Source of the DNA: a virus
Taxonomy: Duplodnaviria; Heunggongvirae; Uroviricota; Caudoviricetes
Length of the DNA: 64,000 nucleotides
Direction: 5' to 3' (one strand)
IMG/VR virus record: IMGVR_UViG_3300014205_000209
The stretch's first letter is position 1, and each line of letters starts with the position of its first letter. Below the pieces are notes generated by a model. It had not been told where the DNA came from, made no database searches, and saw only the letters and a program-made list of their open reading frames with translations. This document shows, piece after piece, positions 11,288 to 63,826 of this stretch. A program made the position numbers and the translations under genes.

Positions 11288-11349
11288 GTTAATCTTTCTT
11301 TTTAAGTTTATTCATTGAAGTTACCATCAATATTATATATAATTAAATT

Positions 11350-11697: not shown

Positions 11698-11706
11698 GAA
11701 ATAAAA

Positions 11707-27574: not shown

Positions 27575-27648
27575 CAGAGCTGACGAGATTTGAACTCGCA
27601 ACCTTTCGGGAGACAACCGAATACTCTAGCCAATTGAGCTACAGCTCT
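27575..27648 (-). tRNA. tRNA-Asp (anticodon GTC), unusual U37
   Basis: Acceptor AGAGCTG/CAGCTCT, D-arm GCTC...GAGT, anticodon stem TTCGG/CCGAA with loop TTGTCTC, T-arm GCGAG-TTCAAAT-CTCGT. Confidence 0.55.
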
Positions 27649-37583: not shown

Positions 37584-38174
37584 TCATCTTTTTCCATTGT
37601 TAGTTCTTGATTCAAGATAAAAAGACAATTTAATATTTTTTTTAATGGCTTTATTTTGTATTTCCCAAGTCAAATCAATAAAATCAAAATCATTATATAT
37701 TTGATAATTTAAAATAGCAAATGTATATTCATTTCCCTCTTTTTTATATCTAATATCTTTTGAATATTTTCTTAATTTATTAAAAACACCTTGCATGAAA
37801 CTTTTTTCTTCATTTATATCTTTTATCAACTTACTATATATAAATGGTTCAAAATAGTAAATCTTCAAATTTAACTTTTTTGCTATTTTAATTTCTGCTG
37901 CTATACCTTTAGATGTTTCCCAACCATCTAACTTCAATACAATTATACCATCACAATGAGATAATAATGCTTCATCATATTTTCCCCATACATTCCAACC
38001 ACTTTCAAGTTTTCCTATTTTTCTTAATGTATGATTTTGTGTTAATGGAGAAAAACAATAAATTCCTAATTTCAATAATTCAATACAAGTTTTTGATACT
38101 ATCGTTACGCGTTCAGCCATTTTAGCATAATTTTTATGATAATATGGTGCTGCTAAATAAAAAACTTTTTTCAT
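37584..38174 (-). CDS. nucleoside 2-deoxyribosyltransferase-like protein
   Basis: N-terminal VFYLAAPYYHKNY (YLAGP-type motif) and SKGIAAEIKIAKKLNLKIY (catalytic Glu region). Confidence 0.5.
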   Translation of the reverse strand: MKKVFYLAAPYYHKNYAKMAERVTIVSKTCIELLKLGIYCFSPLTQNHTLRKIGKLESGWNVWGKYDEALLSHCDGIIVLKLDGWETSKGIAAEIKIAKKLNLKIYYFEPFIYSKLIKDINEEKSFMQGVFNKLRKYSKDIRYKKEGNEYTFAILNYQIYNDFDFIDLTWEIQNKAIKKNIKLSFYLESRTNNGKR

Positions 38175-42088: not shown

Positions 42089-43429
42089 TCATTCTCTATC
42101 TCCTTTTGCATCTTTCATATTCATTACAGGTTTTACTCTCATTATGATTTCTGCAGTAGGTTCAATTGCTTCTTCTATCATTTTGGAATTTTTATATGCT
42201 TCAGGTGCTTCATCCAAAGTATTAAAACCAACTGATGTAGAATAAATGTCTTTCATTGAATCTTTAAATTTTTCTACATCAATAATTTGTTTAGCTTTTG
42301 CTCTACTATAAACCCTGCCTGCTCCGTGTGGTGCAGAATAATTCCATTCTGAATTGCTTTTACCTTTGCAAAATAATAATCCATCATGCATATTAAATGG
42401 AATTATCATTTCTTCACCAGTATAAGAACGGATTGCACCTTTTCTAACTATAAAATCTCTGAAATCTATAAAATTATGCACACAAGATATTCTTTTTAAA
42501 TCACTTCTGGATTTAATAGAACTATCTAGAACATCGCATATTATATCAGCTATATATTTCCTATTAACCTCTGCATATTTTTGAGCAAATATCATATCTG
42601 CCAAATAATGCATCGCATCTTCATCTTCAAGATAATCCATTACATTTTTAACATTATCAGTTCCTGCATCATTTCTTAATTTTCTTATTTCTGATTCTAT
42701 GTCTTTACCTGTGTATGTTTTTCTTATATTTTCTATTTCTGTTTTAATAGAAAAATCTTTTCCTTTTCTAACTATTTTAGTTGCATAATATTGCCAATAT
42801 TCACAAACACATTTACCAAAATTTCTAGAACCAGTATGTATAGTTAACCAAAAATGATTTTTTATATCATCTTTTCCAATTTCAATAAAATGATTACCGC
42901 CGCCTAAAGTGCCTATGCTGTTTATAATGCGTCTTTCATTTGCATTTATCTGTTTACATTTATTTTGGAACCATTTTTCTTCTCCTTCATAAATTTCAGG
43001 AGAATATGATGTATTAAATTTAACATTAAACGCATTTGTAAAATCTTTAGCAGTTTTTCTTACTTCATTCCAAGGAAAATCTTTTTTCAAATGAATTACT
43101 GCTTTATCATGCATATTTGATCCAAATGGTATTTTATCACGTATTATTTTATCTAATTCATCATATGACATTGATAATTTTTCACCTAAATCTTGCGATA
43201 ACATCCCACAACCAATATCTACACCTATGACATTAGGAATTATTTTTTGTGTCATAGGCATTGTGAAGCCAATTACAGCTCCTTTTCCCCAATGTGTATC
43301 TGGCATTATTGAAATAGGATTTGTAAATGCTGGATGATTTATGAATGATGTGATTTGACTAATACATGATTCTTCTACATTATCAATCATTACTTTAGCT
43401 GTTGTATATTTACCGGTCATTTCGAACAT
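42089..43429 (-). CDS. rtcB: RtcB-family RNA 3'-phosphate ligase
   Basis: VIGVDIGCGM, TLGGGNHFIEIG and APHGAGRVYSR are the hallmark metal-binding and GMP-His motifs of RtcB. 446 aa. Confidence 0.8.
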   Translation of the reverse strand: MFEMTGKYTTAKVMIDNVEESCISQITSFINHPAFTNPISIMPDTHWGKGAVIGFTMPMTQKIIPNVIGVDIGCGMLSQDLGEKLSMSYDELDKIIRDKIPFGSNMHDKAVIHLKKDFPWNEVRKTAKDFTNAFNVKFNTSYSPEIYEGEEKWFQNKCKQINANERRIINSIGTLGGGNHFIEIGKDDIKNHFWLTIHTGSRNFGKCVCEYWQYYATKIVRKGKDFSIKTEIENIRKTYTGKDIESEIRKLRNDAGTDNVKNVMDYLEDEDAMHYLADMIFAQKYAEVNRKYIADIICDVLDSSIKSRSDLKRISCVHNFIDFRDFIVRKGAIRSYTGEEMIIPFNMHDGLLFCKGKSNSEWNYSAPHGAGRVYSRAKAKQIIDVEKFKDSMKDIYSTSVGFNTLDEAPEAYKNSKMIEEAIEPTAEIIMRVKPVMNMKDAKGDRE

Positions 43430-48700: not shown

Positions 48701-49570
48701 TTATCTAATAATAAGTTTTTCACTATAGCTATTATTTCCAATTTTAAAAGTTAATAAATAACGACCTTTTAAATTAATCAACATTGTATATTTAAAAAAA
48801 TCATTTTTAATTTGAAGTAAATTTGTACAATTTCTTCCATTTAAATCGAAAAGTTGAATTTTATTTACAAGATTATTTGATTGTAAATATAAGCTGCCAA
48901 ATGTTGGATTTGGATAAATATTAAAAGTTGTAGAATTTTTAGTAACTATTTTTTTCTCTATACTTGTATAACGAGTAATGAGGGTATCAATACAAACAGA
49001 TACGCCTGGAAAACTTGAATGAGTAACATTATTATTAGAATCTAAAAAGAATCCATCACTCCAATAAAAATTACATTTAAAATTATTTGGTAAAAAATAA
49101 TTATTAGTATCAGTATAAAAACCAATAAATTTTTTGTTAATAAGATATTGTAATGGAGATTCACAACCTGCATAATTAACGGATAATTTTACAAATTTAA
49201 GTGTGGAAAAATTAATACTTCCATTTATTGTAGAATCTATATGAACATAAACTGATTCTTCAGGTGTAAAATCCCCTCTAACTTTAAAAATTGTATCATA
49301 ATAACCTATAAATGCATTATCATACATATTAAATTTTTGCAAAATTCTTACAATTAATTCTTCTTGATAAGAAGTATCTACATAAACATCAACCAAATTA
49401 TTTCTTAAATAATAAGATGTTGTTACTTTTACAATACCTGGTTGAAGTTCTTCATAAACTTTAAAATTAGAATCAGCTGGTGTACAATCACAAGTAAATA
49501 CTTTTAAACAAAAAATTAGTATAAAACTAATAATGAATTTAAGTGTCATAATTTTCTCTCCTTCTTTCAA
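48701..49570 (-). CDS. secreted protein with a T9SS (type IX secretion) C-terminal sorting domain
   Basis: Signal-peptide/lipobox-like N-terminus (MTLKFIISFILIFCLKVFTC). C-terminus KIQLFDLNGRNCTNLLQIKNDFFKYTMLINLKGRYLLTFKIGNNSYSEKLIIR matches the Por-secretion CTD pattern. Confidence 0.5.
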   Translation of the reverse strand: MKEGEKIMTLKFIISFILIFCLKVFTCDCTPADSNFKVYEELQPGIVKVTTSYYLRNNLVDVYVDTSYQEELIVRILQKFNMYDNAFIGYYDTIFKVRGDFTPEESVYVHIDSTINGSINFSTLKFVKLSVNYAGCESPLQYLINKKFIGFYTDTNNYFLPNNFKCNFYWSDGFFLDSNNNVTHSSFPGVSVCIDTLITRYTSIEKKIVTKNSTTFNIYPNPTFGSLYLQSNNLVNKIQLFDLNGRNCTNLLQIKNDFFKYTMLINLKGRYLLTFKIGNNSYSEKLIIR

Positions 49571-49633: not shown

Positions 49634-51016
49634 TTATTTAGTCTTTGAAATGATTGGATCTACTACCACTTCTTTGATTTCTTTTTTCTTTCCTAAAAAT
49701 TCAGGAAGTTCCATTCCAGCTATCTTGAACAGATTTTCAAGAGGTGGAACTGAATTCATTAGTCCAGATATGAAATTTGGAGTTTGTGTACCAGAACCTG
49801 AATCCCAAACTGTAACATTGTCAATTTTGATACCTTTAACAGCTTCAACCTGTGTTTTTACCAGTTCAGGTAATTTGTCAACAATTAGTAACATTGCAGC
49901 TTTATTTGGATCGCCTCCGGCTGCACTAACAAGATTTTTAAATCCTTCAGCTTGTTTATCAAGAATTTCTTTTAAACCTTTAGCTTGAGCTTCCATTCTC
50001 AAGAAAATTGCATCAGCTTCACCTTTCGCTTCTCTACGTAATTTTTCAGCTTGTGCTTCTGCAGCTATTTCTATATTTGTTTTTGCAATTTCAGCTTTAA
50101 CAACTATATCTGCAGTTTGAGCTGCTCTTTCACGATCTGCTCTGGCAAGTTCAGCGATTTGTTCTGCTTTATACGTTTCTTCCTGAGCTTTTGCAATTGC
50201 AACTTTTTCAGCAGCTGTAGCAGCTCTATCAGCTTCTGCAGTTTTTTGTCTTAATTCAGATTTTGAATTTGCTATTTTAACATTTGCAGTATTTTCACCT
50301 TCAACCGCAATAGCATTAGCATCTGCAACTCTTACTCTTTGTTCTCTTAAAGCATCAGCTTGACCAATTTCACCAGACATTGTTTTTTGTGCAACATCAA
50401 TTTTAGCTTTATTCAATGCTTCTGCTGCCGCATTTTTTCCTAATGCTTCAATATATCCTGATTCATCACGAATATCAGTAATATTAACATTGATAAGAGT
50501 TAAACCAATTTTTTCAATTTCTGTTTCAACACTTAATTTAACATTTCTCAAAAATGTATCTCTATCAGCATTAATATCTTCAATAGACATTGTTGCAACG
50601 ACTTGACGCATTTGACCTGTAATAATTTCACAACATAATTTCTTTATTTGATCACTTGATAAACCTAACAAACGTTCTGCTGCATGTGCCATTATAGCTT
50701 CATTTGTTGATATACCAATTGTAAATGTTGATGGAACATTAACTCTAATTTGTTGTTTGCTTAGTGCACCATCCAATTTAATATCTATTTGAATTGGATT
50801 AAGATCCAAAAATTGATAATCTTGTAAAATTGGTAATATAAATGCTGAACCACCATGAATACATTTGGCAGCTTTATCTTTTCCAACACTTCCAAATACT
50901 ACTAATATTTTATCTGATGGACATCGTTTATATCTTTTCAAAATAACCATTAAAATCATGAAAAAGGCCAAAATTACAATAATGCCTGTAATTAACCAAA
51001 ATGAATTTAGTTCCAT
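49634..51016 (-). CDS. flotillin-like SPFH/band-7 protein (FloT/YuaG-like)
   Basis: N-terminal transmembrane helix, SPFH domain, then a long Ala/Glu-rich coiled-coil (EA repeats) typical of flotillins. 460 aa. Locally higher GC than its surroundings. Confidence 0.75.
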   Translation of the reverse strand: MELNSFWLITGIIVILAFFMILMVILKRYKRCPSDKILVVFGSVGKDKAAKCIHGGSAFILPILQDYQFLDLNPIQIDIKLDGALSKQQIRVNVPSTFTIGISTNEAIMAHAAERLLGLSSDQIKKLCCEIITGQMRQVVATMSIEDINADRDTFLRNVKLSVETEIEKIGLTLINVNITDIRDESGYIEALGKNAAAEALNKAKIDVAQKTMSGEIGQADALREQRVRVADANAIAVEGENTANVKIANSKSELRQKTAEADRAATAAEKVAIAKAQEETYKAEQIAELARADRERAAQTADIVVKAEIAKTNIEIAAEAQAEKLRREAKGEADAIFLRMEAQAKGLKEILDKQAEGFKNLVSAAGGDPNKAAMLLIVDKLPELVKTQVEAVKGIKIDNVTVWDSGSGTQTPNFISGLMNSVPPLENLFKIAGMELPEFLGKKKEIKEVVVDPIISKTK

Positions 51017-51073
51017 TAGAACTCCTTTAATTTAATTTGTTTTATAATCTTTCTATCATTTTTTTTATTTTAT

Positions 51074-51373
51074 CTAAACATTTTTCCTCCATCTTTTATA
51101 TTGCTTCATTTTTTGTTCTGCTATATAATATATCTCGGTAAATTTATTACATTTTAATTTTACTTTTGTATTACATTTATCTCTTTTAAGATATCTACCA
51201 CATTCATCATTTAACGTACATTTTTCATTATTACATCCACATGTATCATAATAGTAATTGTTAAATTTACTCATTAAATGTTCAATAATTAAAACAATAA
51301 AACCTCCACCAACTAAAACTAAAAAAGCAATATAAATTGTAGAAAAACAAAAATTAAAAATTTTAATTATCAT
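51074..51373 (-). CDS. small membrane protein with a Cys-rich tail
   Basis: Transmembrane helix followed by CGCNNEKC...CGRY...C. Confidence 0.3.
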   Translation of the reverse strand: MIIKIFNFCFSTIYIAFLVLVGGGFIVLIIEHLMSKFNNYYYDTCGCNNEKCTLNDECGRYLKRDKCNTKVKLKCNKFTEIYYIAEQKMKQYKRWRKNV

Positions 51374-52643
51374 TCTTATTTTCCCAAAATAAATCTAATG
51401 CTTTTTCACAACAAATATTCTGAAAACATGCCCCACTAATATCATTTTCTTGATCAATAAGATGTTCCCATAGTTTTTTATCAAACCCTTTAAATATTTT
51501 TTCAGCCATCCATTTACGACCATCTAAATTCAAACCTTTAAATTCTACTTTTCTATCAATTCTACCAGGTCTCAATAAAGCTTCATCAAGTTTAGATATA
51601 TTATTTGTAGTTATTATTAGAAATGTTCCATTACTTGTTTCTACTCCATCTATTTCATTAAGCAAACAATCAAAAGTTAATCCAGGTGAATTTTGTGTTG
51701 CTGTTAAATTTTTTCTACCATCAAATATAGTATCAATATCTTCTAATAATACAATTCTTCCATTAGAATTAGATTGCATTCTATAATGTTTAGTAAAATC
51801 GTGGTTATTCATTGATGCTAAATCAAATATGTATAATGGTAAACATAAATTTTGAGATATAGCAGCTGCTACTTTCGTTTTTCCTGTACCAGGTTGACCA
51901 TAAAATAAAAATCCGCGTTTCCATGGAATATTTCTATCAAGATACCATTGTTTTTTCTTTAACCAAGTTTCTGATTCATTTACTATATGTTTAATAGATT
52001 CATCTAACCACAAATTTTTTATTAATCTAGTTGATGGTTCTAATTCCAAATCTGATATATTTACTCCAATAGGCAATGCTGTTCTTACATTTTCTATTAT
52101 ATAAGCTGGAAAAGATGATTGATTATCATTTTTTATATTTCTTGATGATTCATTAACATTACCTGGCTGATTTGAATATTGTTTTTCACGATTTCCTTCT
52201 AATAAGATTATTACTGGATATTGTTTTGCGTTTAAATGTGCATCTATCGTTTGCAAATTAGCTAGTTTTAAAATATCATATAAATTTACAAATTTTGGTG
52301 CAATTATAGAAAATTTTTGAGGTGTAATACTAATAAAAGCAATTTTTTTTCTTAATATAGTTTTTTCTGAAAAAGATAAATATGATTCCCAAAAAACAAC
52401 TATACTTTCTTTATAACTTTTAGAATATTTCCACTCACAAAAAATATGTTTAAAATTGTTACTTACTGGTTTCCAATTATTTTTTTGTAAATATCTCATT
52501 AAATGAACAAATGAGGCTTCATCAAAAGAAAATCTATGAAAAAATAAACCTGAAAATTTAAACAAATATTCTTTTATAGTATTCCAACCGGCAACTATTG
52601 TTGCACCTATAGCACCTAATCCAATAGCACTTGTAGTAATCAT
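51363..52643 (-). CDS. BCS1-like AAA+ ATPase
   Basis: WKRGFLFYGQPGTGKTK (Walker A), IVLLEDIDTIF (Walker B), and LRPGRIDRKVEF (second region of homology with arginine finger), which is BCS1/ATAD-like. Confidence 0.65.
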   Translation of the reverse strand: MITTSAIGLGAIGATIVAGWNTIKEYLFKFSGLFFHRFSFDEASFVHLMRYLQKNNWKPVSNNFKHIFCEWKYSKSYKESIVVFWESYLSFSEKTILRKKIAFISITPQKFSIIAPKFVNLYDILKLANLQTIDAHLNAKQYPVIILLEGNREKQYSNQPGNVNESSRNIKNDNQSSFPAYIIENVRTALPIGVNISDLELEPSTRLIKNLWLDESIKHIVNESETWLKKKQWYLDRNIPWKRGFLFYGQPGTGKTKVAAAISQNLCLPLYIFDLASMNNHDFTKHYRMQSNSNGRIVLLEDIDTIFDGRKNLTATQNSPGLTFDCLLNEIDGVETSNGTFLIITTNNISKLDEALLRPGRIDRKVEFKGLNLDGRKWMAEKIFKGFDKKLWEHLIDQENDISGACFQNICCEKALDLFWENKNDN

Positions 52644-53161
52644 TTATTCTCTACTATTTCAAATGTATTAGTAGCTTTATCAAATTTACTAACTTTAACC
52701 TGCATACCAGTAGTAAAAATAATATTAGATTTATTTAGAGCATTAACATGCATTTTTTTTCCAGATATCATTACTATTATTTCACCAATAATATTCGGAG
52801 CAATAGAATAATATACTTCTGCTGTTTTACCAACAACTTCATCATAATTAAGTTTTGCTGCAATAGCTTGTTTATACATCATCCATAAAAACCATGCTAC
52901 TGAAAACATAACAAATAAGCCTAGTAAACTAGAAAATATCATTGAAAAAATTAAACTATGTCCATCTTTCAAAAATGCTAAAGATGACCAACCAAATATA
53001 GTCAAAAATGTAAATATATTTCTTATAGACAAAAGTTTGAAATCATGAGATGAATCATGATGATCAACATCAATATCATGCAAACCAACAAATGTTAAAA
53101 TAAAGAAAATTAAAAATACAATTGTTGAAAAAATAGACAAATACATTAAAACTTCTAACAT
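52640..53161 (-). CDS. NfeD-like membrane protein (YuaF-type partner of flotillin)
   Basis: Multiple N-terminal transmembrane helices and a C-terminal short beta-barrel (IGEIIVMISGKKMHVNA...MQVKVSKFD). Confidence 0.55.
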   Translation of the reverse strand: MLEVLMYLSIFSTIVFLIFFILTFVGLHDIDVDHHDSSHDFKLLSIRNIFTFLTIFGWSSLAFLKDGHSLIFSMIFSSLLGLFVMFSVAWFLWMMYKQAIAAKLNYDEVVGKTAEVYYSIAPNIIGEIIVMISGKKMHVNALNKSNIIFTTGMQVKVSKFDKATNTFEIVENK

Positions 53162-53928
53162 AAAAATCTCCTTTAAGCAAAATCTAATTTCATTTCAGTT
53201 GTTACATTATAACCACCATCTAATTTCTTCCATTCAACTTCAAAAAAACCATTAGCAATATATGCTAATTTTGAATTTTTCACAATTCTCTGAAAAGTTT
53301 TATTTTTAGTCATAATAAATTCAAATGATTGATTCGCAGATTTTTCAAATCCTTCTATATATTTTAAATCATCTTCAGATAATTGTGACATTATTTAAGG
53401 TCTTTTAAAAAAAGAACGTCCTAACATACTTGCTTTTTGACCTTCATTCCATTTATCCCAACCAGAACCATTTCTGATTTCTTCACTTTCAATAAAATCT
53501 TTTGAAGCCACAAAATCAGCTAATGCATTTCTATATTCAATTTCTGTTTCTTTTTTTAGTACATCTCTAAATTTGTGCACTTTTGCTGCAGACTTGAGAC
53601 TTTCTAAATCAGGAAAATCCATTGGCATTTTTTTACTCCTCTCTATGAAATTTATAATAATATCTAAATTCACAAACTAAAAAATTCATTATAACAATTT
53701 GTATTTCAAATCTTGGACTATGATCTGATTCATACAAATCTAAATTAATTGTTGGACTTAAAATTGTAATTCCGTCTTTAAAATTTCTAACAAAATAAAA
53801 TCCGGCAATTTCTATTGCATAATTTTTACTAACACTAAATCCAATACAAGAAATTGGAAAAGTTCTATTTTCATTTAGCCATGAAATAAAAAACATTATT
53901 GAAATTGCAATGCCAAAAATTATTTCCA

Positions 53929-55053
53929 TCATAATTCATTTCTTTCACGTAAATAATCTTTAATAATTTCAATCAACTTTTCACTTACTAATTCATGATT
54001 AGGAACATGTCTTAAAGAACTAGTTTTATATAAGCTTGTCATTTTGGAATCCATATCATGAGCATACTGTTCTACTTTATCAAAACTCCATCCACCATTT
54101 CTAATATTTTTTAATTCATCTGCATCAATTCCTGTTCTATCAACATTAACAATTCCTGTTTCTAAAATTTCTGTTCCCATCCGCATTAAACGTGTAAGGT
54201 GCATTGCATGTTTTGTATCATAACCATATTTTTCTTCTGTTTCTGCACGTTTTTTGTTTCTTCCAGCTTTCCATGCTAAATATCTTTTCCATCCTTTCAA
54301 TGCCGCTGCATAACTCAATTCATTAATTGCCATTTCTTTATATTCTGGTTTAATGTATTCATTTCCAATAGATTTAATTGCATACAATTGTGAATCCAAT
54401 CCTTTTCTAAATAAATCCAATGCAATTTCTCTGTATTCTTCTTTCAAATTTTTCTTAATCAAAATTAAAACTTGATCACTATAAATAGCTTTCAAATCTT
54501 CAATCATATCTTGTTTTGTTAATGGATCAAAAAAATCATCAGCTAAATGAACAATTCCATCAAGTTGCGTTACTGGAAAAATTGGTGTTTCTGGAAGATT
54601 ATAATCTTTTCTATCAGGTTCTTTTTTTGGTGGATTCAACAAAAATGCTCTATGTAATTTGATTCGTTCCAATTGTGCAAATCCATATCCAGAAAAAGTA
54701 AATCTGGCTTTTTTAGAAACAAATTCACTTTTAAGTTCACGAATTCTTTCCCAATATGGTGTGATGTACTTAATACATCTATCAGCAGTAAAAAGAATAT
54801 CCATACAATTTGGATTATTATCTAAAATCAATCCTACAATTTTCCTTAAATCATAAATTGTTCTATCGTCTTGAACACCAGGAATTGCTTTGTAAACAAC
54901 TTGTTCGAATTTTCTATATCCTAAAAAATATTCAATAGTAGGCAAGCAAACTGCTACAGTATCCTCATCAGAATCAGGATTATTAGTACCATATGCTCTA
55001 GATCCTACAATTACATCAACAATTTTTCTCTGTTCAGCAACATTTGCATGCAT
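53929..55053 (-). CDS. Pol-beta superfamily nucleotidyltransferase
   Basis: IVGSRAYGTNNPDSDEDTVAV matches the hG[GS]x(9-13)Dx[DE] nucleotidyltransferase motif. 374 aa with a helical C-terminal domain. Confidence 0.5.
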   Translation of the reverse strand: MHANVAEQRKIVDVIVGSRAYGTNNPDSDEDTVAVCLPTIEYFLGYRKFEQVVYKAIPGVQDDRTIYDLRKIVGLILDNNPNCMDILFTADRCIKYITPYWERIRELKSEFVSKKARFTFSGYGFAQLERIKLHRAFLLNPPKKEPDRKDYNLPETPIFPVTQLDGIVHLADDFFDPLTKQDMIEDLKAIYSDQVLILIKKNLKEEYREIALDLFRKGLDSQLYAIKSIGNEYIKPEYKEMAINELSYAAALKGWKRYLAWKAGRNKKRAETEEKYGYDTKHAMHLTRLMRMGTEILETGIVNVDRTGIDADELKNIRNGGWSFDKVEQYAHDMDSKMTSLYKTSSLRHVPNHELVSEKLIEIIKDYLRERNEL

Positions 55054-55355
55054 ATGTACCCTTTCAGTTCATTTATAATTAAATATCAATATGTTTTTGA
55101 AAAAAAGATAATTTTTATTTTTCTGCAATGCAATCATGATCGGTATTATAAGCATCACCAACCCATTTACACGGTTCTAAAAGCTTTTGTTCTATTAGTG
55201 AATAATCCCAAATACAATTTCTACATGTACATTTAAACATTTCTCTAATTTCAATATTATCTTTTTGCTCATATGATTTTTGAACTTTACAAAAACCTTT
55301 AATAAATTTTTCACATTCTTTATCAGAACAAACAGTTACTGTTAACATATCACTA

Positions 55356-55787
55356 TCATATGATTTTTCCATTATAATCTTCTCCTTCACATTTATTACC
55401 TTTTTCATTATTACATAACCAACACATAGGTTGTAAATTTTTAAGTGAACGAGCACCACCTTTAGATGCTGGAACTATATGATCAACAGTCATCATTATT
55501 TCTTGATCATTTTTCATAGTATATAAATTGAAATGATATTTGTCTGATTGAATATTTTTATCTTTTTCTAACGCAAAATATTGACCAACTAATCCGCATT
55601 TAACACAAATAATTCCTTTTTGTGAAAACACATGGTATCTAACTGAGTCTTTAACTTTTTTATCTTCAAATATTTTAAATTTTTTATTTTGTTTCCAATT
55701 TCTGAAGGTTGAATCGAAATACTCTTCATTAAATAAATCAAAAACAACACTTATTTGATAAGTACCTATTCTTTCATATTTACACAT
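55356..55787 (-). CDS. HNH endonuclease
   Basis: CVKCG...H...VDHIVPASKGGARSLKNLQPMCWLCNNEKGNK. Confidence 0.65.
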   Translation of the reverse strand: MCKYERIGTYQISVVFDLFNEEYFDSTFRNWKQNKKFKIFEDKKVKDSVRYHVFSQKGIICVKCGLVGQYFALEKDKNIQSDKYHFNLYTMKNDQEIMMTVDHIVPASKGGARSLKNLQPMCWLCNNEKGNKCEGEDYNGKII

Positions 55788-55789
55788 AA

Positions 55790-56836
55790 TTAAAAAGTAT
55801 TAAGTTGTTCAGATAAATATTGACGACATTTAGCTGCAACTGAACTTGTAATATCTTTTGATGTAAATCCACTTGCTGCTAAAGTATCTATTTCTTCTTT
55901 TAAAATATCAGCCATTGTATTCTTAATAAATTCTCCCATTCCTTTCATTTCAATTCTTCCGCCATTTAATAGATCAAATGTTTTTGAACACATTTGTTCT
56001 AATCTCCACATGGGTGTAATCTTTTCTACTAACTCTTTTATATTGTTAATTCTTTCAACATCTACTGGTACTAAAGTTTTTACTTTTGTTGCGCTATGTT
56101 TATCGCCTTTAACTTTAAACCAAAAACCACTATTTTCATATCCTTTAGAAATACACTTCCAAACTATTCCTTCGCCGATTCCAATAACACCAAGTTGTTT
56201 TCCGACAGGACATTCTGCTTCTACAGCTAACATCATTTCTGCCAATTTGATTTGATATTCATGTGGCTTATTAAAATCTATGTCTAAATACCAATGTGGA
56301 AAATCAAAAATACATTTAATTTCAGGTTCATTAATGGTAGACATTATTTTGATGATTTTTTCTTTAGAAAGCCATGTTTTTTCGATCATTTCTTGATCAT
56401 TAATATTTGCATAAGCAATATTAAAAACAACAAACATTTTAGGCAACTCACTAATTGCCATACCTTTTTGAATACCTTTACCACACCATTCACCAAAAAT
56501 AACTACAGGATTATCTGGTAAATTAATAACATCAAAAAGTTTTTCAAAAACATTTTTTTTAGAATGTACAAACATAGCAAATCCAGCATTATCTTTAGCA
56601 GGATCAATAATATTTTCCCTACTTTGTACCCACATTTCATCATCTTCCATAACAACTGCAGAATTTGTTCCATGCAATTTTACAGTTCCTTCAAATGTCA
56701 AAACCGGACAATGTTTTGTATAATCATGAATAACATTATCATTTTCATCTTTTCCTTGATAACTTGTTTTATGTTTAACATTATGAACAACGCTTCTAAA
56801 TTGTTCAATATCAGGAAATGTTATTAATCTTTTCAT
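55790..56836 (-). CDS. ATP-dependent RNA ligase, Rnl2-like family
   Basis: Adenylation motif I EGTVKLHGTNSAV (KxHGTN as in T4 Rnl2) in a nucleotidyltransferase-domain protein of 348 aa. Confidence 0.55.
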   Translation of the reverse strand: MKRLITFPDIEQFRSVVHNVKHKTSYQGKDENDNVIHDYTKHCPVLTFEGTVKLHGTNSAVVMEDDEMWVQSRENIIDPAKDNAGFAMFVHSKKNVFEKLFDVINLPDNPVVIFGEWCGKGIQKGMAISELPKMFVVFNIAYANINDQEMIEKTWLSKEKIIKIMSTINEPEIKCIFDFPHWYLDIDFNKPHEYQIKLAEMMLAVEAECPVGKQLGVIGIGEGIVWKCISKGYENSGFWFKVKGDKHSATKVKTLVPVDVERINNIKELVEKITPMWRLEQMCSKTFDLLNGGRIEMKGMGEFIKNTMADILKEEIDTLAASGFTSKDITSSVAAKCRQYLSEQLNTF

Positions 56837-58116
56837 CTATAATTCCTAAAATAAAGTTTTAGTAAAAAATCTGTATATTAATGTTACAATAGCAATTAAA
56901 ATTAAACTACCAAATATTATATACAAAATAATATCTACTATTTTTCCAACATTTGGAGGCAATTGCATATTTATCTTCCTTCCTCAATAACTTCTACCAT
57001 ACACCCACCATCGCTACACATTGCACAATATGTAAAAAATTTTCCAGTTCCAACTTCCTCGTATATCCTTTGATTCTTTGTAAATTCAAATTCTTCATCA
57101 CTACTTTCACATTTTTCTTTCAATTTGAAATTTTTTAAATGTTTAACAGATTCTGCCAACCATTTTCTATTAAACAGATCATCATTTTCTAACAAACGAC
57201 AAATTTTACTCATCAAATAATCATCTTCAGTTTCAATAGTTGCAACTTTCATTTCAGGCTTTTTATCAGGCTCATTTTTACTTGAACAAAATAATTCATA
57301 TTTCATATTTTACCTTTTAATAACAAACAATTAGATTTTGGATCATTACACAAATAATTAGAACAATTATTAGGAATTCTTCTTTGATCACACGTTTCTT
57401 TTGTTTCATTATCACAATCCCAATAAAGATCAAACAAATTACAAGATTTACATTTTATCCAATTTTCTAAATCATCATATATAAATTGTTGACCACATAA
57501 AAGACAAACATCAAATGCTAACAAATGACATGACATATCACGTTTCATTGCCAATATACCATCATCACAAATTGGACATTTAGATTTATGATCACTAATT
57601 TCAACCAAATCAAATTTATTAATATGCTTAACAGGATTATGAATATTTAATGGTATTGTTGGTTTCATATTCTTTTAACTTTTAAATAATATTCAGGATA
57701 ATTTTCTTTTAACAACATTTTAGCTTCTTTAAAACCAGTCGCTACAATAGAAATTTTATGTTTAACCTTTCCTTTTACTATTTCTGCAAATTTAAATTGA
57801 TGTAATTCTTTTTGAATTTTTCTCTGATGTGGAAAATTTTTCATAATCATATTTCAGATTATATATTAAATTTTCAAATTATTTCATTACCTTTATCATC
57901 ACATTTATAAAACCAACTCTCAAAACTGGTTGCACGTATTGCAAAGTCTCTTAAACTTTCTTCTAATTCTTTTTCTGTTACATCATCATCAAACTCAAAT
58001 ATTTCTTCATCAGCATCATTCATTCCTAAACATCTTGCACCAAATTTAACTTTCATTTTTTCTTCTTTGGATTATTAAACACAAATTTCTTCTTTTTCTT
58101 TTTAAATAAAATAAGC

Positions 58117-59628: not shown

Positions 59629-59660
59629 AATATTATATATTAGATCATTTTTAAAATGAA
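59629..59660. repeat. 32-bp perfect direct repeat, copy 1 (copy 2 is at 60319..60350)
   Basis: aatattatatattagatcatttttaaaatgaat appears twice, about 690 bp apart. The minus-strand reading contains TATATAATATT, which is -10-like. Confidence 0.6.
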
Positions 59661-60293
59661 TTTAGTACATGATGATGGTTCATCTAAACAATCGTCATGA
59701 TTTTTGCAATTGACACATTTAGGAGATAATAAAAGTCTAAATTCTTGATCTATTTTAATTTTTTTATAATTCATTTTCAAAATATTAATTAATGCATCTG
59801 CATCACCATGTACATATACCCCATAATCGAATGATGTATGAATAATTCCAAATTGTTTTTGTATATCATTAAACAATTCATTTGTCGATTTTATTAAAAC
59901 TTCTATATCATCGCGAATTAAAGGAGTATTATTGGGGCCTTTAGAAAAAATTTGTAAATTTTTATGTGCAATATATTCATGACGAAAACCTTTATATCTT
60001 TTAAATAATTTTAGTAAAGTATCAAAAGAATCTTTGAGTTTTTGTTTAGATTCTTGGTTTTGTATTTTATTTATTATTGTAGTAAAATTAAAATACTTTT
60101 TATCAATTAAACATGATAATTCTAAAATTATTTTTTCTGATAATGATTCTTGAATTATTGAAAAAGCACTTGGTGCAACCATATTTAGTAAATTAACAGT
60201 TTCTTCGTTAGAAAATAATTTTTTATATGTTTGTAAATGCAAGTTTATTTTAATGACTTCATGTGTTAATGATTCAAGTTCATTATTATTCAA
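59640..60293 (-). CDS. hypothetical protein (TTG start)
   Basis: 217-aa ORF flanked by a 32-bp direct repeat. Confidence 0.35.
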   Translation of the reverse strand: MNNNELESLTHEVIKINLHLQTYKKLFSNEETVNLLNMVAPSAFSIIQESLSEKIILELSCLIDKKYFNFTTIINKIQNQESKQKLKDSFDTLLKLFKRYKGFRHEYIAHKNLQIFSKGPNNTPLIRDDIEVLIKSTNELFNDIQKQFGIIHTSFDYGVYVHGDADALINILKMNYKKIKIDQEFRLLLSPKCVNCKNHDDCLDEPSSCTKFILKMI

Positions 60294-60350: not shown

Positions 60351-60450
60351 TAAGATATTATATGGGTGAATGATGGTATTCGAATCAATAACAATCTGAA
60401 TCACAATCAGGAATTCTAACAAATTGAACTACATTCACCATGTTTTTAAA

Positions 60451-60530
60451 TGCTCAGGGAGAGACTCGAACTCTCAAGATTTCTCATCCGGGTTTGAGCC
60501 GGACCTGGTTGCCAATTTCAGCACCTGAGC
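60451..60530 (-). tRNA. tRNA-Leu (anticodon CAA), class II
   Basis: Acceptor GCTCAGG/CCTGAGC, anticodon stem TCCGG/CCGGA with loop CTCAAAC, 11-nt variable arm, T-arm GAGAG-TTCGAGT-CTCTC. Confidence 0.6.
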
Positions 60531-60535
60531 TAGTA

Positions 60536-60820
60536 TTATTTTTTCTGTACTTTTTCAAACCCACCTAATGCAACTATCATTTTTCCATGAGATAAAGAAT
60601 TAACTATTCCTTGTGATACCAAAAATTTAGCTTGTTCAAATTGAACATCAACATCAGAAGAATCACTTAATCTATTTTTTGTTCGCCTTCCTTGTGGTAT
60701 AAGATCTACAAATTTTGCTACTTCTGGTGAAAGAGTGTACCTTTTAATATATTCTTCATCAGTCAATTGAGGACTAACTAATCTTCCATCATCTGTTTTC
60801 AACAATGTTTTCATAACCAC
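60536..60820 (-). CDS. hypothetical protein
   Basis: 94-aa ORF. Confidence 0.3.
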   Translation of the reverse strand: MVMKTLLKTDDGRLVSPQLTDEEYIKRYTLSPEVAKFVDLIPQGRRTKNRLSDSSDVDVQFEQAKFLVSQGIVNSLSHGKMIVALGGFEKVQKK

Positions 60821-61005
60821 AACCTTTCACTTCTTTTCAATCTTTTACCTTCATTCCAAGCTATTACAGCTTCATGTTCTGAATCTTCAATAGTACTACA
60901 ATCTCCACATGTTCCACATACAACATAATAATATGGAGTTAAAAATTCTTTTTCTCTTATTGACAAAAGAATACTTCTACAATGTTCACAAAATTTTAAT
61001 TCCAT
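60811..61005 (-). CDS. small zinc-ribbon protein. The track ORF 60811..61167 is trimmed here to the internal Met at 61005.
   Basis: MELKFCEHC...CGTCGDC. The upstream part of the track ORF is a translation of tRNA-Ser (PGFDSRQP). Confidence 0.35.
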   Translation of the reverse strand: MELKFCEHCRSILLSIREKEFLTPYYYVVCGTCGDCSTIEDSEHEAVIAWNEGKRLKRSERLWL

Positions 61006-61030
61006 ATTAGTAGTATTATAAATTAAAAAA

Positions 61031-61119
61031 CGGAGAGGATGGGAATTGAACCCACAGTTCTTTTTAAGGAACAACATTTTAGCAGAATGCCCCAGCAAAC
61101 CGATATCTGGCTCCTCTCC
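61031..61119 (-). tRNA. tRNA-Ser (anticodon GCT), class II
   Basis: Acceptor GGAGAGG/CCTCTCC, D-stem CCAG/CTGG, anticodon stem GCATT/AATGT with loop CTGCTAA, long variable arm with a GTTC/GAAC hairpin, T-arm GTGGG-TTCAATT-CCCAT. Confidence 0.7.
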
Positions 61120-61126
61120 AAATTTT

Positions 61127-61197
61127 TCCGGCTGCCGGGAATCGAACCCGGGTAAAGAGAGCCACAATCTCTTGGACTACCACTGTCCTACAGCAGG
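61127..61197 (-). tRNA. tRNA-His (anticodon GTG)
   Basis: D-arm GGAC-AGTGGTA-GTCC, anticodon stem AGAGA/TCTCT with loop TTGTGGC, T-arm CCGGG-TTCGATT-CCCGG, acceptor CCTGCTG/CAGCCGG with one mismatch. Confidence 0.55.
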
Positions 61198-61210
61198 GAT
61201 GATTTTTATA

Positions 61211-61286
61211 ATACCAACGGAGAGATTTGAACTCTCAACATACTGGTTCTAAGCCAGCCGGATCTGCCAATTGTCCTACGTTGGTA
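61211..61286 (-). tRNA. tRNA with anticodon TAG (Leu by anticodon) but a short class-I variable loop
   Basis: Acceptor TACCAAC/GTTGGTA, anticodon stem GCTGG/CCAGT with loop CTTAGAA, T-arm GAGAG-TTCAAAT-CTCTC. Confidence 0.5.
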
Positions 61287-61292
61287 TGTTTT

Positions 61293-61367
61293 TGGTAGTG
61301 AGGGACGGAATTGAACCGACGTAACCATGGATATGAGTCATAGCTTGGAACCAGCACCAACCTCACT
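61293..61367 (-). tRNA. tRNA, probable anticodon CAT (Met/Ile2-type), 3' CCA encoded
   Basis: Acceptor AGTGAGG/CCTCACT followed by ACCA. T-arm GTCGG-TTCAATT-CCGTC. Anticodon arm read as TATGA-CTCATAT-CCATG with a 4-bp stem. Confidence 0.45.
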
Positions 61368-61374
61368 ATATATT

Positions 61375-62235
61375 TTATTCAAAACTTTTTTTATTATGCA
61401 ATGTTCTAAATTTTATATCTGGCATATATTTTCTTAAAAATATTGCTGTTTTATTAGCATGCTTTCCAACAATTTTTGCTAATTGTTTAAGACAACCCAC
61501 ACGAGTTAAATCTATTCCACTTTCAACAATTTGTTTTCTTAAATAATCAATTTTTTCTGCACGTTTAACTTCTCTACTTTTAATATCATATTTTTTTAAA
61601 TTTTGTCTTTTTTGCAATTCTTCTATCATATTTAATTTTTTTAATTGTATATCATAATATGATGTTACATCATATTTTTTATCATATTGTATAATTATGT
61701 CTTTTATTTTATTTAATTCGTTTTTAGTATCACTATAAAAAATTTTCCAAATAATTCTTAAAGTTTCTACATTTTTAGATTTTAAAAAAGCATCTCTAAT
61801 TTTATCTTTTTCTTGAATATGTTTATAACGATAATGTTGATATCCATCAATTTCTATCGCTAAACTTTTTTCAGGGAAGAAAAAATCTAATCTATATCTT
61901 CCAAATGGAAATTCGCAAAAAAAATCTCTTTCTTTTATAAAACCTTCGTTTATTAAAAATTTTTCAAAAAAGTTTTGAGCATATGAAAACTTAGGTTTCC
62001 ATGGATTAGCTCGTCTTTCAGAATGTGCTTTTTTCATGCCATCAGAAATCTTTTTTCTAGATATTTCTGAATGATGCTTATTTTTAAAACCTGGAATAAT
62101 TATTCCTAATCTGATTTTTTCAGAATATTTTTCACCAGCTTTTTTAAGAATATCACTAGTTTCTTTTGTTTGTCCTCTATTCCATCCCCAACATTTTCCT
62201 CTATAATTTGTTTTATGAATGTATATTTTACTCAT
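61375..62235 (-). mobile_element. homing-endonuclease-like protein (DUF559/Vsr-like nuclease), third paralog
   Basis: YRLDFFFPEKSLAIEIDGYQHY (EIDGxxH), then a Lys-rich helical C-terminus with LTRVGCLKQLAKIV. Flanked by tRNAs on both sides. Confidence 0.55.
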
Positions 62236-62237
62236 AA

Positions 62238-62309
62238 AGCGCCTGGATGGAGTTGAACCATCGATAACGTTTTTGCAGAACGTTCCCTTAACCGTTTGGG
62301 TACAGACGC
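62238..62309 (-). tRNA. tRNA-Cys (anticodon GCA)
   Basis: Acceptor GCGTCTG/CAGGCGC (one G·U), D-stem CCC/GGG, anticodon stem ACGTT/AACGT with loop CTGCAAA, T-arm GATGG-TTCAACT-CCATC. Confidence 0.65.
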
Positions 62310-62569
62310 ATTTTTTTCTTTATTCCAATAAGGACTTTTACATTTTGGACAAATAATAATTTCTTTTTTTCTAGGAGACCATTTCCATCCACAACGTTTA
62401 CATTCTTCAACTTTAATTTCTCGACCACTGTTTTTCATTTTTACCTCTAAAGTATAATTTTATAAGTATTACCTATAAAGTAATATTTTATAAAAACTTT
62501 AGAAATAATTTGTAGAGAACGATTCTATGGACCTCGTTCGACGGTATTTTTATCTACAAATTTAAATTA

Positions 62570-62655
62570 CGGAGGTAACAGGAATTGAACCTATTTCTCC
62601 TTTCAGAGGACAACTTTCCAAGTTGTTCCAGCGAACCAATATCTGGCTTACCTCC
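62570..62655 (-). tRNA. tRNA-Ser (anticodon GGA), class II
   Basis: Acceptor GGAGGTA/TACCTCC, D-stem CCAG/CTGG, anticodon stem ACAAC/GTTGT with loop TTGGAAA, long variable arm, T-arm ATAGG-TTCAATT-CCTGT. Confidence 0.65.
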
Positions 62656-62729
62656 AATTAACAATCTATTCTTTTACATTCTGAACATTTACCATTACAA
62701 GGTTTTCTTTTCATTTTAACTCAAAAAAA

Positions 62730-62816
62730 CGGAAGAAGTGAGACTCGAACTCACAGTGCATTCATCATGCAGTACAAATTTTCAAGATTTGCTCCTCATC
62801 CAGCCGGATCTCTTCC
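62730..62816 (-). tRNA. tRNA-Ser (anticodon TGA), class II
   Basis: Acceptor GGAAGAG/TTCTTCC (one G·U), anticodon stem CAAAT/ATTTG with loop CTTGAAA, variable-arm hairpin TGCAT-GATGA-ATGCA, T-arm GTGAG-TTCGAGT-CTCAC. Confidence 0.65.
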
Positions 62817-62826
62817 AATTAAAAAT

Positions 62827-62904
62827 GCTCCCAAAGAGACTTGAACTCTTAAGATTTCTCAACCGATCTTAAGCCGGTCGTGTTTGCCAATTTCACCATA
62901 GGAG
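62827..62904 (-). tRNA. tRNA-Leu (anticodon TAA), second, diverged copy
   Basis: Acceptor GCTCCTA/TGGGAGC (one G·U), D-region GTGAAATTGGCAAACAC, anticodon stem ACCGG/TCGGT with loop CTTAAGA, 11-nt variable arm, T-arm AAGAG-TTCAAGT-CTCTT. Confidence 0.55.
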
Positions 62905-62916
62905 CAAATTTTAAAG

Positions 62917-62993
62917 TCCACTTGGTTGGAGTCGAACCAACGTGTAACCAAATTAACCTTTCTACGCCTTATCAGAGCGAGGGTATACAAGTG
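62917..62993 (-). ncRNA. tRNA-like gene with canonical acceptor and T-arm but no resolvable anticodon arm
   Basis: Acceptor CCACTTG/CAAGTGG and T-arm GTTGG-TTCGACT-CCAAC. The internal sequence AAGGCGTAGAAAGGTTAATTTGGTTACAC gives no 5-bp stem plus 7-nt loop. Confidence 0.3.
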
Positions 62994-63111
62994 GAAGTTT
63001 GATTTTACATTACACTAATATGTTCCAAATAACTAAATGATAATTGGATTCTAACCATGCTATTTATATTAGTATCATCGGTTGCGAATGACATGTAAAA
63101 TTATATTTTGG

Positions 63112-63193
63112 TGGCTCCGAGCAGATTTGAACTGCCGACACCGAAATTTTCAGTTTCGTGCTCTACCTGTGCTTACGCCTGAGCTACAGAGCC
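63112..63193 (-). tRNA. tRNA-Phe (anticodon GAA) with an enlarged 17-nt D-loop
   Basis: Acceptor GGCTCTG/CGGAGCC (one G·U), D-stem GCTC/GAGC enclosing AGGCGTAAGCACAGGTA, anticodon stem CGAAA/TTTCG with loop CTGAAAA, T-arm GGCAG-TTCAAAT-CTGCT. Confidence 0.55.
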
Positions 63194-63826
63194 AATATTA
63201 TTTTTCAAAGAACAAAGAAATTCTTCTTTAGTTTGTATTTCTAATAACGAAAAGAATAATTTCTTTTCGACGACTATTAGTTTTTCTTTTAAACTTTCGT
63301 GTTGATCAAAAACTATTTTCATTTTTTCTTTATCATTACCCCACCAAAAACCTTTAACTTCAATAAAAAGATCTTCGTCATTTAGATAAAAGTCTGGAGT
63401 ATAATGTTTTTCTTTTCCTCCAAAAACATACAAAAAAGAATTTTTATGTAAATTTAGTTTCTTCCAATTTATATTTAATTTATTCATCAAAAGTGCAAGA
63501 TCTCGTTCCCATGTTCCTTGCACTTTTTGTTTGTTAATTTCATACCATTTTGATCTTCCGCCAGAATTATGTAAAGATTGTCTAATCGATAGTCGTTGCA
63601 TTTGTTCTTTAAATTTTTCTGTCTTAGCATATTTTTGAAATGAGTTTAAACCTTTAGAAGAAAGATCTTTCATCTTAATTGACACTTTGTTCGCTATCTT
63701 CGCAATCCTCGTATCAGTTTTATTTTTTCCACTATTCCATGCTTTACCATTTCGTTTATGATATAAAGAGTGAAACCCTATTCCTTTTCTACTATAATGC
63801 TTTTTACAAATTGTACATTCAAACAA
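63173..63826 (-). mobile_element. homing-endonuclease-like protein (DUF559/Vsr-like nuclease), fourth paralog
   Basis: N-terminal zinc ribbon CTICKK...H..H. YTPDFYLNDEDLFIEVKGFWW (nuclease core), then a helical tail. Its 3' end overlaps tRNA-Phe by about 20 nt. Confidence 0.5.

Follow-up and report, generated by a model that had tools for sequence, protein, structure and literature searches.

The locus at positions 53,929–56,836 of the window (the whole 64,000-nucleotide stretch of viral DNA that was analysed) probably holds two phage RNA-repair genes of a type known from earlier work, with a selfish endonuclease cassette set between them. The pair consists of an RlaP-family nucleotidyltransferase (NTase) and an Rnl2-like RNA ligase, and the RNA-repair reading is supported by the sequence relationships of the two enzymes. 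This type of tRNA-repair pairing has already been described in phages, and what is found here is one more ordinary instance. The locus adds one uncultured large phage to the many that pair RlaP with RNA ligases and tRNA arrays, a combination that counters the anticodon nucleases of the host, and has little significance beyond annotation.

Layout of the locus

The original prediction, made from the sequence alone, described the ligase, HNH-like/Cys-rich and NTase genes as co-oriented; all four ORFs were confirmed at its coordinates, on the minus strand (Table 1). Their shared orientation is real and uninformative, since 110 of the 122 ORFs in the window lie on the minus strand. The tight packing that had been described holds for part of the block: the ATG of the HNH gene lies 2 nt past the ligase stop, and the 5′ end of the Cys-rich ORF overlaps the 3′ end of the HNH gene by 17 nt, but a 61-nt spacer precedes the NTase gene. 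Altogether, the ligase and NTase genes are 736 nt apart. The Cys-rich ORF most likely starts at the ATG at 55372, giving a product of 85 aa rather than 114; this start has a Shine-Dalgarno sequence (GAAGGAGA) 8 nt ahead of it, and independent gene callers picked the same one in L115 and L116. The four-gene arrangement was found again in these independent assemblies, completely in L115 and in part in L116, and L111, L112 and L113, the closest relatives, do not share it. A promoter and terminator scan of 53500–57400 gave no signal above chance and is therefore uninformative on operon structure.

Table 1. Features of the RNA-repair locus and related genes elsewhere in the window
Feature	Coordinates	Strand	Remarks
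Rnl2-like ATP-dependent RNA ligase, 348 aa	55790..56836	−	Adenylyltransferase domain and C-terminal helical domain; KLHGTN = residues 53–58
HNH endonuclease, free-standing, 143 aa	55356..55787	−	PF01844, PF14279
Cys-rich orphan ORF, 85 aa (8 Cys)	55115..55372	−	Shine-Dalgarno sequence and gene-caller starts
AT-rich spacer ahead of RlaP gene, 61 nt	55054..55114	−	Direct sequence reading
RlaP-family (PF10127) Pol-beta nucleotidyltransferase, 374 aa	53929..55053	−	GSRAYGTNNPDSDED = residues 17–31
RtcB 3′-phosphate RNA ligase	42089..43429	−	PF01139; 12 kb off; second, independent repair route
Nearest tRNA gene array, 9 tRNAs (20 in the window)	60365..63193	−	ARAGORN and Rfam; 3.5 kb upstream of ligase

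The window is part of a larger genome: proteins identical to its own occur on an 80.6-kb contig, and contigs of 250–470 kb carry homologues. When the whole block was searched at the DNA level against 50,697 phage records, the only matches were three short ligase fragments, indicating that there is no close cultured relative. The phage is large and uncultured and probably infects Bacteroidota. The tRNA genes of the window number 20 (17 found by ARAGORN and 3 by Rfam only), replacing an earlier count of 21 plus 2 tRNA-like elements.

The nucleotidyltransferase and the ligase

Profile matches and conserved motifs identify the 374-aa protein as an RlaP nucleotidyltransferase, in keeping with the RNA-repair role first proposed for it. 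On PF10127 (RlaP) in Pfam it scores 49.7 bits, where the cutoff is 23 (E 5.2e-13), and it matches phrog_388 in PHROGs (E 1e-54); PF10127 is annotated in all 120 homologues among the matches listed. In an alignment of 21 sequences, G17, S18, D29 and D31 are invariant and D85 is nearly so; a further C-terminal motif, D279-x-K281-H282, is conserved along with D29-x-D31. The protein is homologous to NrdC.11 of T4, itself a member of the RlaP family (BLASTP, E 4e-6; hhalign, probability 95.7%, E 9e-9), and the GS and acidic catalytic residues of the two line up. It thus belongs to the same NTase family as the enzymes of known RlaP-ligase systems and has the GS/DxD/D residues intact, but falls within a longer viral clade (374 aa, phrog_388) (PMC7824862; PMC12776372).

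The helical C-terminal half fits the Pfam profile poorly, the PF10127 alignment covering profile positions 24–139 of 249 only, and it carries an extra helical segment. In the AF2 model (pLDDT 84.6), an alpha/beta N-domain (residues 1–100) is followed by an all-helical region, within which the segment 160–240 is of low confidence; the crystal structure of PfRlaP has an N-terminal NTase domain and a C-terminal helical domain, which form a cleft (PMC12776372). Sequence and profile searches of the PDB gave no solved structure for the NTase, and Foldseek gave weak matches only (3c18, Hailong HalB and kanamycin NTase), with E 0.008 or worse and TM 0.27 or less when normalised to the query. Two other groupings were rejected: there is no robust link to the antibiotic NTases (weak fold matches, E about 0.04), and the Foldseek match to the HalB defence NTase is too weak. 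PADLOC gave no match to the CD-NTases, and its scan of defence systems left RlaP, the ligase and the 85-aa ORF all without a match.

The ligase is a distant relative of Rnl2 that spans the full length and keeps every catalytic motif. It matches PF09414 (E 3e-16) and phrog_548 (E 1e-56). It differs from T4 Rnl2 in being only about 17% identical to it and in scoring 36 bits against TIGR02307, the Rnl2 equivalog of NCBIfam, far under the cutoff of 197.15, and is therefore Rnl2-like rather than an Rnl2 equivalog. Beyond the KLHGTN motif I, on which the Rnl2-like assignment had first been based, motifs III–V are all present. The residues conserved in 20 homologues are K53 (motif I), R73 (Ia), E116 (III), F138 (IIIa), E222 and K227 (IV), and K241 and K243 (V), and their equivalents in T4 Rnl2 are K35, R55, E99, F119, E204, K209, K225 and K227 (hhalign, probability 96.9%, E 2e-10). 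The single difference noted is N139 in place of D120 of T4 Rnl2. The hhalign alignment extends to profile column 324, corresponding to T4 residue 297, and so runs into the C-terminal domain. The AF2 model (pLDDT 87) has full-length T4 Rnl2 as its top PDB match (E 5e-12); the Foldseek alignments to the full-length structures 2hvr and 2hvq span 366–372 columns at that E value, and helices across residues 260–345 make up a C-terminal domain of the Rnl2 type. Elsewhere in the window, at 12700–13278, there is a TAG-terminated mini-ligase with no continuation beyond its stop.

Repair pathway and gene neighbourhood

RlaP was named for its association with RNA ligases (Burroughs & Aravind 2016, as related in citing papers). 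It is described as more prevalent in jumbo phages than any other NTase, in parallel with the RNA ligases (PMC7824862); the link with ligases is published for both bacterial operons and jumbo phages (PMC7824862; Burroughs & Aravind 2016, through citing papers). Its activity, characterised in 2025, is known for PfRlaP and PaRlaP only, which come from Pseudomonas RtcB-RlaP-RtcA operons and not from phages. They add 1–2 NMP to an RNA 3′-OH and do not accept 3′-phosphate ends, prefer the 5′ half when given a mimic of cleaved tRNA, and rescue the aminoacylation of tRNA that is short of one nucleotide (PMC12776372). By analogy, the RlaP of the locus would restore the nucleotide excised by ‘smart’ anticodon nucleases such as RloC after cutting, and the Rnl2-like ligase would then seal the 3′-OH/5′-phosphate nick in the tRNA stem-loop. 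Ends of the 2′,3′-cyclic phosphate/5′-OH type would have to be passed to the phage RtcB, or else be healed beforehand by some kinase/phosphatase that the window does not show. The RtcB gene, correctly recognised from the start, encodes a protein that covers profile positions 1–425 of the 426 in PF01139 (216.6 bits, cutoff 27, E 1e-63). The tRNA array near the ligase gene is possibly a substrate pool or a back-up. As in known RlaP-ligase systems, RlaP here adjoins an ATP-dependent 5′-phosphate RNA ligase, and the phage that carries it is large, rich in tRNAs and also encodes RtcB. The viral RlaP clade and the Rnl2-like clade have thousands of homologues, and would be reasonable targets for testing the model ‘restore excised nucleotide, then seal’ in phage.

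The tRNA repair of T4 (Pnkp/pseT and Rnl1, Rnl2/rnlB, NrdC.11) follows the same logic of countering anticodon nucleases, and the ligase and NTase of the window are homologues of Rnl2, over its full length, and of NrdC.11. In contrast to T4, the window has no visible Pnkp or Rnl1, and the ligase and RlaP genes are close together, whereas the repair genes of T4 are dispersed (about 53 kb from rnlB to nrdC.11). The original prediction proposed the NTase as a possible healing partner of the ligase in place of Pnkp, perhaps through the addition of CCA or of a nucleotide, in a Pnkp-free variant of the T4 pathway not described before. This is extremely improbable. It has in its favour that the NTase adjoins the ligase, and that the 64 window ORFs of at least 110 aa include no Pnkp, HAD phosphatase, 2H phosphoesterase or CCA-adding enzyme by Pfam. 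However, characterised RlaP requires a 3′-OH and is inactive on 3′-phosphorylated RNA (PMC12776372), so that it cannot remove a 2′,3′-cyclic phosphate or phosphorylate a 5′-OH; nucleotide addition achieves neither. T4 has both NrdC.11 and Pnkp, which are thus complementary rather than alternatives, and in relatives metallophosphatases and CCA enzymes sit beside RlaP, not in its stead. The window, moreover, covers only part of the phage genome, and absence of Pnkp from the phage cannot be claimed. RlaP is an additional nucleotide-restoring step, not a Pnkp substitute. Nor is the arrangement new, as the association of RlaP with ligases is published (PMC7824862) and T4 itself has an RlaP. A more elaborate arrangement would be a two-track kit without any Pnkp, in which RtcB handles 2′,3′-cyclic-phosphate/5′-OH breaks, RlaP and the ligase handle 3′-OH/5′-phosphate breaks left by nucleotide-removing metal-dependent nucleases, and the HNH gene with its 85-aa companion, coupled to the ligase in translation, is a working accessory and no selfish insert. 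We regard it as quite unlikely. It is retained because no kinase/phosphatase that could supply 3′-OH/5′-phosphate ends is visible in the 64 kb, the remainder of the genome lies outside the window, and independent assemblies agree on the coupled layout.

The neighbourhood of both genes was compared in 113 related loci, 31 anchored on viral RlaP and 82 on the viral ligase, with neighbours taken within 6–10 kb. Another RNA-repair gene lies within this distance in 17 of the 31 RlaP-anchored loci (a CCA-type NTase in 8, Rnl1 in 5, Thg1 in 2, RtcB in 1 and a metallophosphatase in 1). Around the 82 ligase genes, the neighbours are Rnl1 (22), RlaP (12), Thg1 (4) and a CCA enzyme (3). A loose, shuffled RNA-repair neighbourhood of Rnl1, Thg1, CCA enzyme, RlaP and the ligase family does recur in phages, as in L107, where the order is CCA-RlaP-ligase, back to back, and in L112, with ligase-Rnl1-RlaP-Thg1. 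Direct adjacency of ligase and RlaP does not hold up even among the closest relatives: it was seen in none of 30 RlaP loci of the clade and in 1 of 80 ligase loci, and L111, which has the nearest RlaP (88% identity), carries DUF7487, YqeY and Thg1 upstream of it, not HNH and ligase. RlaP occurs within 10 kb in about 14% of the ligase loci, which is roughly the expectation for random placement in genomes of 100–150 kb, so that linkage within the clade has no statistical demonstration. The two enzymes might therefore be independent, the ligase acting on other nicked nucleic acids, say, and RlaP on tRNA 3′ ends or other RNAs, and neighbours only through the shuffling of early or auxiliary genes in large phages. 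Such an incidental adjacency is unlikely. It would fit the lack of adjacency in the closest relatives, the distance of tens of kb between the two genes in the cultured Salmonella phage SSBI34 and Pseudaeromonas phage KLEP7, the spacing of rnlB and nrdC.11 in T4, and the inserted cassette and spacer that divide the genes here. Against it, Rnl1, Thg1, CCA enzyme, the ligase family and RtcB are found near RlaP in many unrelated viral contigs, and the 3′-OH ends that RlaP makes are what a 5′-phosphate ligase requires. Moreover, the Pnkp and Rnl1 of T4 cooperate although their genes are dispersed. Published operon and phyletic associations of RlaP with ligases also point to linkage. With the genes of L111–L113 as queries, tblastn found no Rnl1, Thg1 or metallophosphatase in the window, and a YqeY homologue at about 18.4–18.8 kb; in the search of the 64 ORFs for end-healing enzymes, Pfam picked up only a His_Phos_1 protein at 30231–30905.

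The HNH gene and the Cys-rich ORF

Two HNH-like, Cys-rich proteins had been predicted between the ligase and NTase genes. One is indeed HNH-like, matching PF01844 (41.4 bits, cutoff 21.4, E 1.6e-10), PF14279 (39.6 bits, cutoff 27.5, E 5e-10) and many HNH PHROGs, but the other is a Cys-rich orphan, for which there was no match in Pfam, PHROGs, PADLOC, phage genomes (tblastn) or the related loci. The overlap of the two genes suggests that the 85-aa ORF is translationally coupled to the HNH gene and that they are expressed together. The pair is best read as a mobile homing-endonuclease insertion standing outside the repair chemistry, because none of the 113 related loci has a homologue of either gene beside the ligase or RlaP. 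In L111, L112 and L113 the HNH gene is absent and the flanks differ too, leaving no clean empty site. As with the free-standing homing endonucleases of T-even phages (Mob, Seg), a small endonuclease gene lies between conserved genes, varies in presence among close relatives, and occurs in a genome with many such genes: the window also has a second HNH, two DUF559, a NUMOD3 protein, an endonuclease-I-like protein and two TnpB. The HNH gene is a putative member of this class, and its 85-aa partner has no known counterpart.

It is very unlikely that the HNH and 85-aa proteins are instead a working partner of the ligase, as a split version of the HNH-Rnl2 fusions reported from jumbo phages (PMC7824862). 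In both cases an HNH is physically associated with an Rnl2-type ligase, the 2-nt gap and the overlapping ORF suggest coupled expression, and the arrangement is stable in independent assemblies. In the reported fusions, however, the HNH is N-terminal, whereas here it stands as its own gene downstream of the ligase and is not conserved in relatives, as the 113 loci show; the abundance of other free-standing endonuclease genes in the window also speaks against a partnership. The same layout recurs in T4, where the homing endonuclease gene mobD lies directly upstream of nrdC.11, and this again favours a mobile insertion. In L014–L017, the RlaP gene itself contains an intein. Selfish elements thus appear to have hit RlaP genes repeatedly (the HNH gene here, mobD in T4 and the intein in these loci), which marks RlaP as a conserved and presumably important phage gene.

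The nucleotidyltransferase and the ligase

By sequence the 374-aa nucleotidyltransferase is assigned to RlaP: it scores 49.7 bits against PF10127 ('RlaP, RNA repair pathway DNA polymerase beta family'; cutoff 23), matches phrog_388 at 1e-54, and PF10127 is present in all 120 of the homologues listed. It is homologous to T4 NrdC.11 (BLASTP E 4e-6; hhalign 95.7%, E 9e-9), which has been placed in the RlaP family (PMC12776372). G17-S18, D29-x-D31 and D85 are conserved in an alignment of 21 members, as is a C-terminal block containing D279-x-K281-H282. The AF2 model (pLDDT 84.6, low confidence at residues 160-240) folds into an alpha/beta domain at the N-terminus and a helical region at the C-terminus. 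It has no convincing match among solved structures, and no robust grouping with antibiotic nucleotidyltransferases was found, kanamycin nucleotidyltransferase and Hailong HalB appearing only at E ~0.02-0.05. A PADLOC search with RlaP gave no match.

Four RlaP homologues of 721-756 aa (L014, at 9986-12232, L015, L016 and L017) carry an insertion of ~370 aa exactly between the invariant D279 and K281. Starting with Cys, ending in HGN followed by Ser, and holding LAGLIDADG-like motifs, it resembles an intein that contains a homing endonuclease, and its site marks the D-x-K-H motif as functionally critical.

The ligase is classed as Rnl2-like (PF09414, E 3e-16; phrog_548, E 1e-56). Its score on the Rnl2 equivalog model is only 36 bits (cutoff 197); it is a distant relative of T4 Rnl2 rather than its orthologue. 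Motifs I (K53-LHGTN), Ia (S72-R73), III (FG-E116-W), IIIa (F135, F138), IV (G-E222-GIVWK227) and V (K241-V-K243) are all kept in 20 homologues; hhalign aligns both domains with T4 Rnl2 (96.9%, E 2e-10), the motif residues corresponding to its K35, R55, E99, F119, E204, K209, K225 and K227. Full-length T4 Rnl2 is also the best PDB match of the AF2 model (pLDDT 87; E 5e-12), ahead of Naegleria Rnl5 and trypanosome REL1. The identities of the two enzymes support the original reading of the block as RNA repair. Elsewhere, the window encodes a minimal ATP-dependent ligase of 192 aa, an adenylyltransferase domain only (PF01068, E 5e-14; motif I KYNGDR), with no PHROG match; its stop codon is TAG, and no read-through ORF was found behind it.

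RlaP and the question of end healing

The name 'RNA ligase-associating Pol-beta' comes from Burroughs and Aravind 2016, who are cited (in PMC12776372 and PMC7824862) for the occurrence of RlaP genes in operons with several kinds of RNA ligase. A 2021 survey found RlaP to be the most prevalent repair nucleotidyltransferase of jumbo phages, with a distribution mirroring that of RNA ligases, and predicted for it a role in replacing the nucleotides that broken RNA ends have lost, ahead of ligation (PMC7824862). According to a 2025 preprint, two Pseudomonas RlaP enzymes extend RNA that ends in a 3'-OH by 1 or 2 NMPs and are inactive on 3'-phosphorylated RNA; of a cleaved-tRNA mimic they favour the 5' half, and they partly rescue aminoacylation of repaired tRNA that had been one nucleotide short (PMC12776372). 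The RlaP-ligase association is therefore already published, and not, as had been supposed, an undescribed variant.

Pfam scans of 64 ORFs detected the expected RtcB and no Pnkp, HAD phosphatase, 2H phosphoesterase, Thg1, Rnl1 or CCA enzyme within the 64-kb window, which covers only part of the genome. The original proposal that RlaP heals ends in the place of Pnkp does not follow from this, since RlaP needs a 3'-OH (PMC12776372) and T4 has both enzymes.

Organization and conservation of the block

The window is AT-rich (~25% GC) and transcribed almost wholly from the minus strand (110 of 122 ORFs). The predicted gene block is present, with one HNH protein rather than two and an ORF of 85 rather than 114 aa. 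Only 2 nt separate the ligase stop codon from the HNH ATG. The Cys-rich ORF, most plausibly starting at an ATG preceded by the Shine-Dalgarno sequence GAAGGAGA, overlaps the HNH gene by 17 nt, and a 61-nt AT-rich spacer lies upstream of the nucleotidyltransferase gene. In two independent assemblies the gene callers give the same 85-aa ORF, and the four-gene order is repeated (L115; in part, L116). A consensus scan gave no promoter or terminator signals above chance.

Positions of features in the window
Feature	Coordinates	Strand	Remarks
Ligase, 348 aa	55790-56836	-	first in transcription order
HNH protein, 143 aa	55356-55787	-	second
Cys-rich ORF, 85 aa	likely start ATG 55372	-	third
Nucleotidyltransferase, 374 aa	53929-55053	-	fourth
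RtcB	42089-43429	-	Pfam scan
His_Phos_1 protein	30231-30905		sole phosphatase-like protein among 64 ORFs
Minimal ligase, 192 aa	12700-13278	-
Block 3' of RlaP	49634-53161	-	173-aa membrane protein; 426-aa AAA ATPase, weak IetA similarity; 99-aa ORF; 460-aa Band_7/flotillin protein
Second HNH	36860-37432	-	beside NADAR; 77% identical to one in L111
Nucleases (grouped, second HNH included)	27639-28586 (-), 61375-62235 (-), 16894-17841 (+), 36860-37432 (-), 63173-63826 (-)
TnpB/Cas12f-like, two	547-1797, 20983-22050	+	OrfB_IS605 and TNB domain
tRNA, CUA anticodon	31312-31388	-	ARAGORN label 'Pyl'
tRNA match, 100 nt	25320-25419	-	Rfam, 55.8 bits
tRNAs, Rfam only	60365-60438; 63112-63193
AbiU2-family protein	59640-60293	-	HEPN; E 3e-18
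ABC/AAA_15-type ATPase, 182 aa	58117-58665	-
ORF, 170 aa	58666-59178		no family match
Type IX sorting-domain protein	48701-49570	-
NADAR, DUF1937, MazG fusion, histidine phosphatase (grouped)	35610-36062, 37584-38174, 6288-7157, 30231-30905

The block is not conserved as such. The closest RlaP relative (L111, 88% identity) keeps the downstream genes (78-aa ORF, AAA ATPase, Band_7) and upstream has DUF7487, YqeY and Thg1 where the window has HNH and ligase. The closest ligase relatives (68-69% identity) are without HNH; one of them, L112, has the order ligase, Rnl1, four small ORFs, 260-aa RlaP, Thg1, YqeY, metallophosphatase. This ligase family is found within 6-10 kb of RlaP in none of 30 loci anchored on RlaP homologues of the clade. 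A more distant RlaP lies within 10 kb, on the same strand, in 11 of 80 ligase-anchored viral loci (directly adjacent only in L107), a frequency (~14%) not clearly above that expected from random placement. In T4, and in cultured phages having both, the two genes are tens of kilobases apart. When several repair genes were used as probes, the neighbourhood proved to recur in shuffled form: 17 of 31 RlaP loci have another repair gene nearby (CCA-type nucleotidyltransferase 8, Rnl1 5, Thg1 2, RtcB 1, metallophosphatase 1; Rnl1 directly upstream in L020 and L026), and 82 ligase loci have Rnl1 (22), RlaP (12), Thg1 (4) or a CCA enzyme (3). Family knowledge and a loose neighbourhood, rather than a conserved operon, therefore underlie the functional link between ligase and RlaP. 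The block 3' of RlaP is shared with L111, and its linkage to RlaP persists even without the ligase.

The HNH domain of the 143-aa protein is clear by Pfam, and its cultured-phage relatives are annotated as HNH endonucleases. HNH-Rnl2 fusions reported in jumbo phages (PMC7824862) would favour a functional partnership with the ligase, which is nevertheless improbable: the 113 related loci contain no homologue of HNH or the 85-aa ORF, free-standing nuclease genes are abundant elsewhere in the window, and the RlaP gene of T4, like that of the window, has an endonuclease gene just upstream, the homing endonuclease mobD, which in T4 overlaps the nrdC.11 start by 17 nt (L117, 20436-22209). The simplest reading is that HNH and the 85-aa ORF are a selfish insertion. 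The heavy nuclease load includes two DUF559 proteins encoded within tRNA arrays, a NUMOD3 protein, an endonuclease-I/DUF7487-like protein, and two TnpB genes among the few on the plus strand. A TnpB relative also lies near the RlaP gene of a 70%-identical relative.

tRNAs and possible counter-defence genes

The expected tRNA genes are numerous, numbering 20 (ARAGORN and Rfam) instead of 21 plus 2. One is an amber suppressor, and TAG ends only 5 of the 74 ORFs of at least 100 aa (TAA 43, TGA 26); these may be signs that TAG is recoded elsewhere in the genome, beyond the window. The 100-nt match, missed by ARAGORN and overlapping the 3' end of ORF 25348-26298, may be an interrupted or long-arm tRNA.

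The AbiU2-family protein, a potential phage-borne RNase, adjoins a tRNA array 3 kb upstream of the ligase. The 182-aa ATPase, neighbour of the 170-aa ORF, aligns with AriA, GajA and PtuA only at their N- and C-termini, as if the middle of a defence ATPase were missing. One protein carries a C-terminal sorting domain of type IX secretion, which suggests that the host belongs to the Bacteroidota. Near the protein bearing it are NADAR, DUF1937, MazG fused to a cytidylyltransferase-like domain, and a histidine phosphatase, which point to possible nucleotide- or NAD-related counter-defence.
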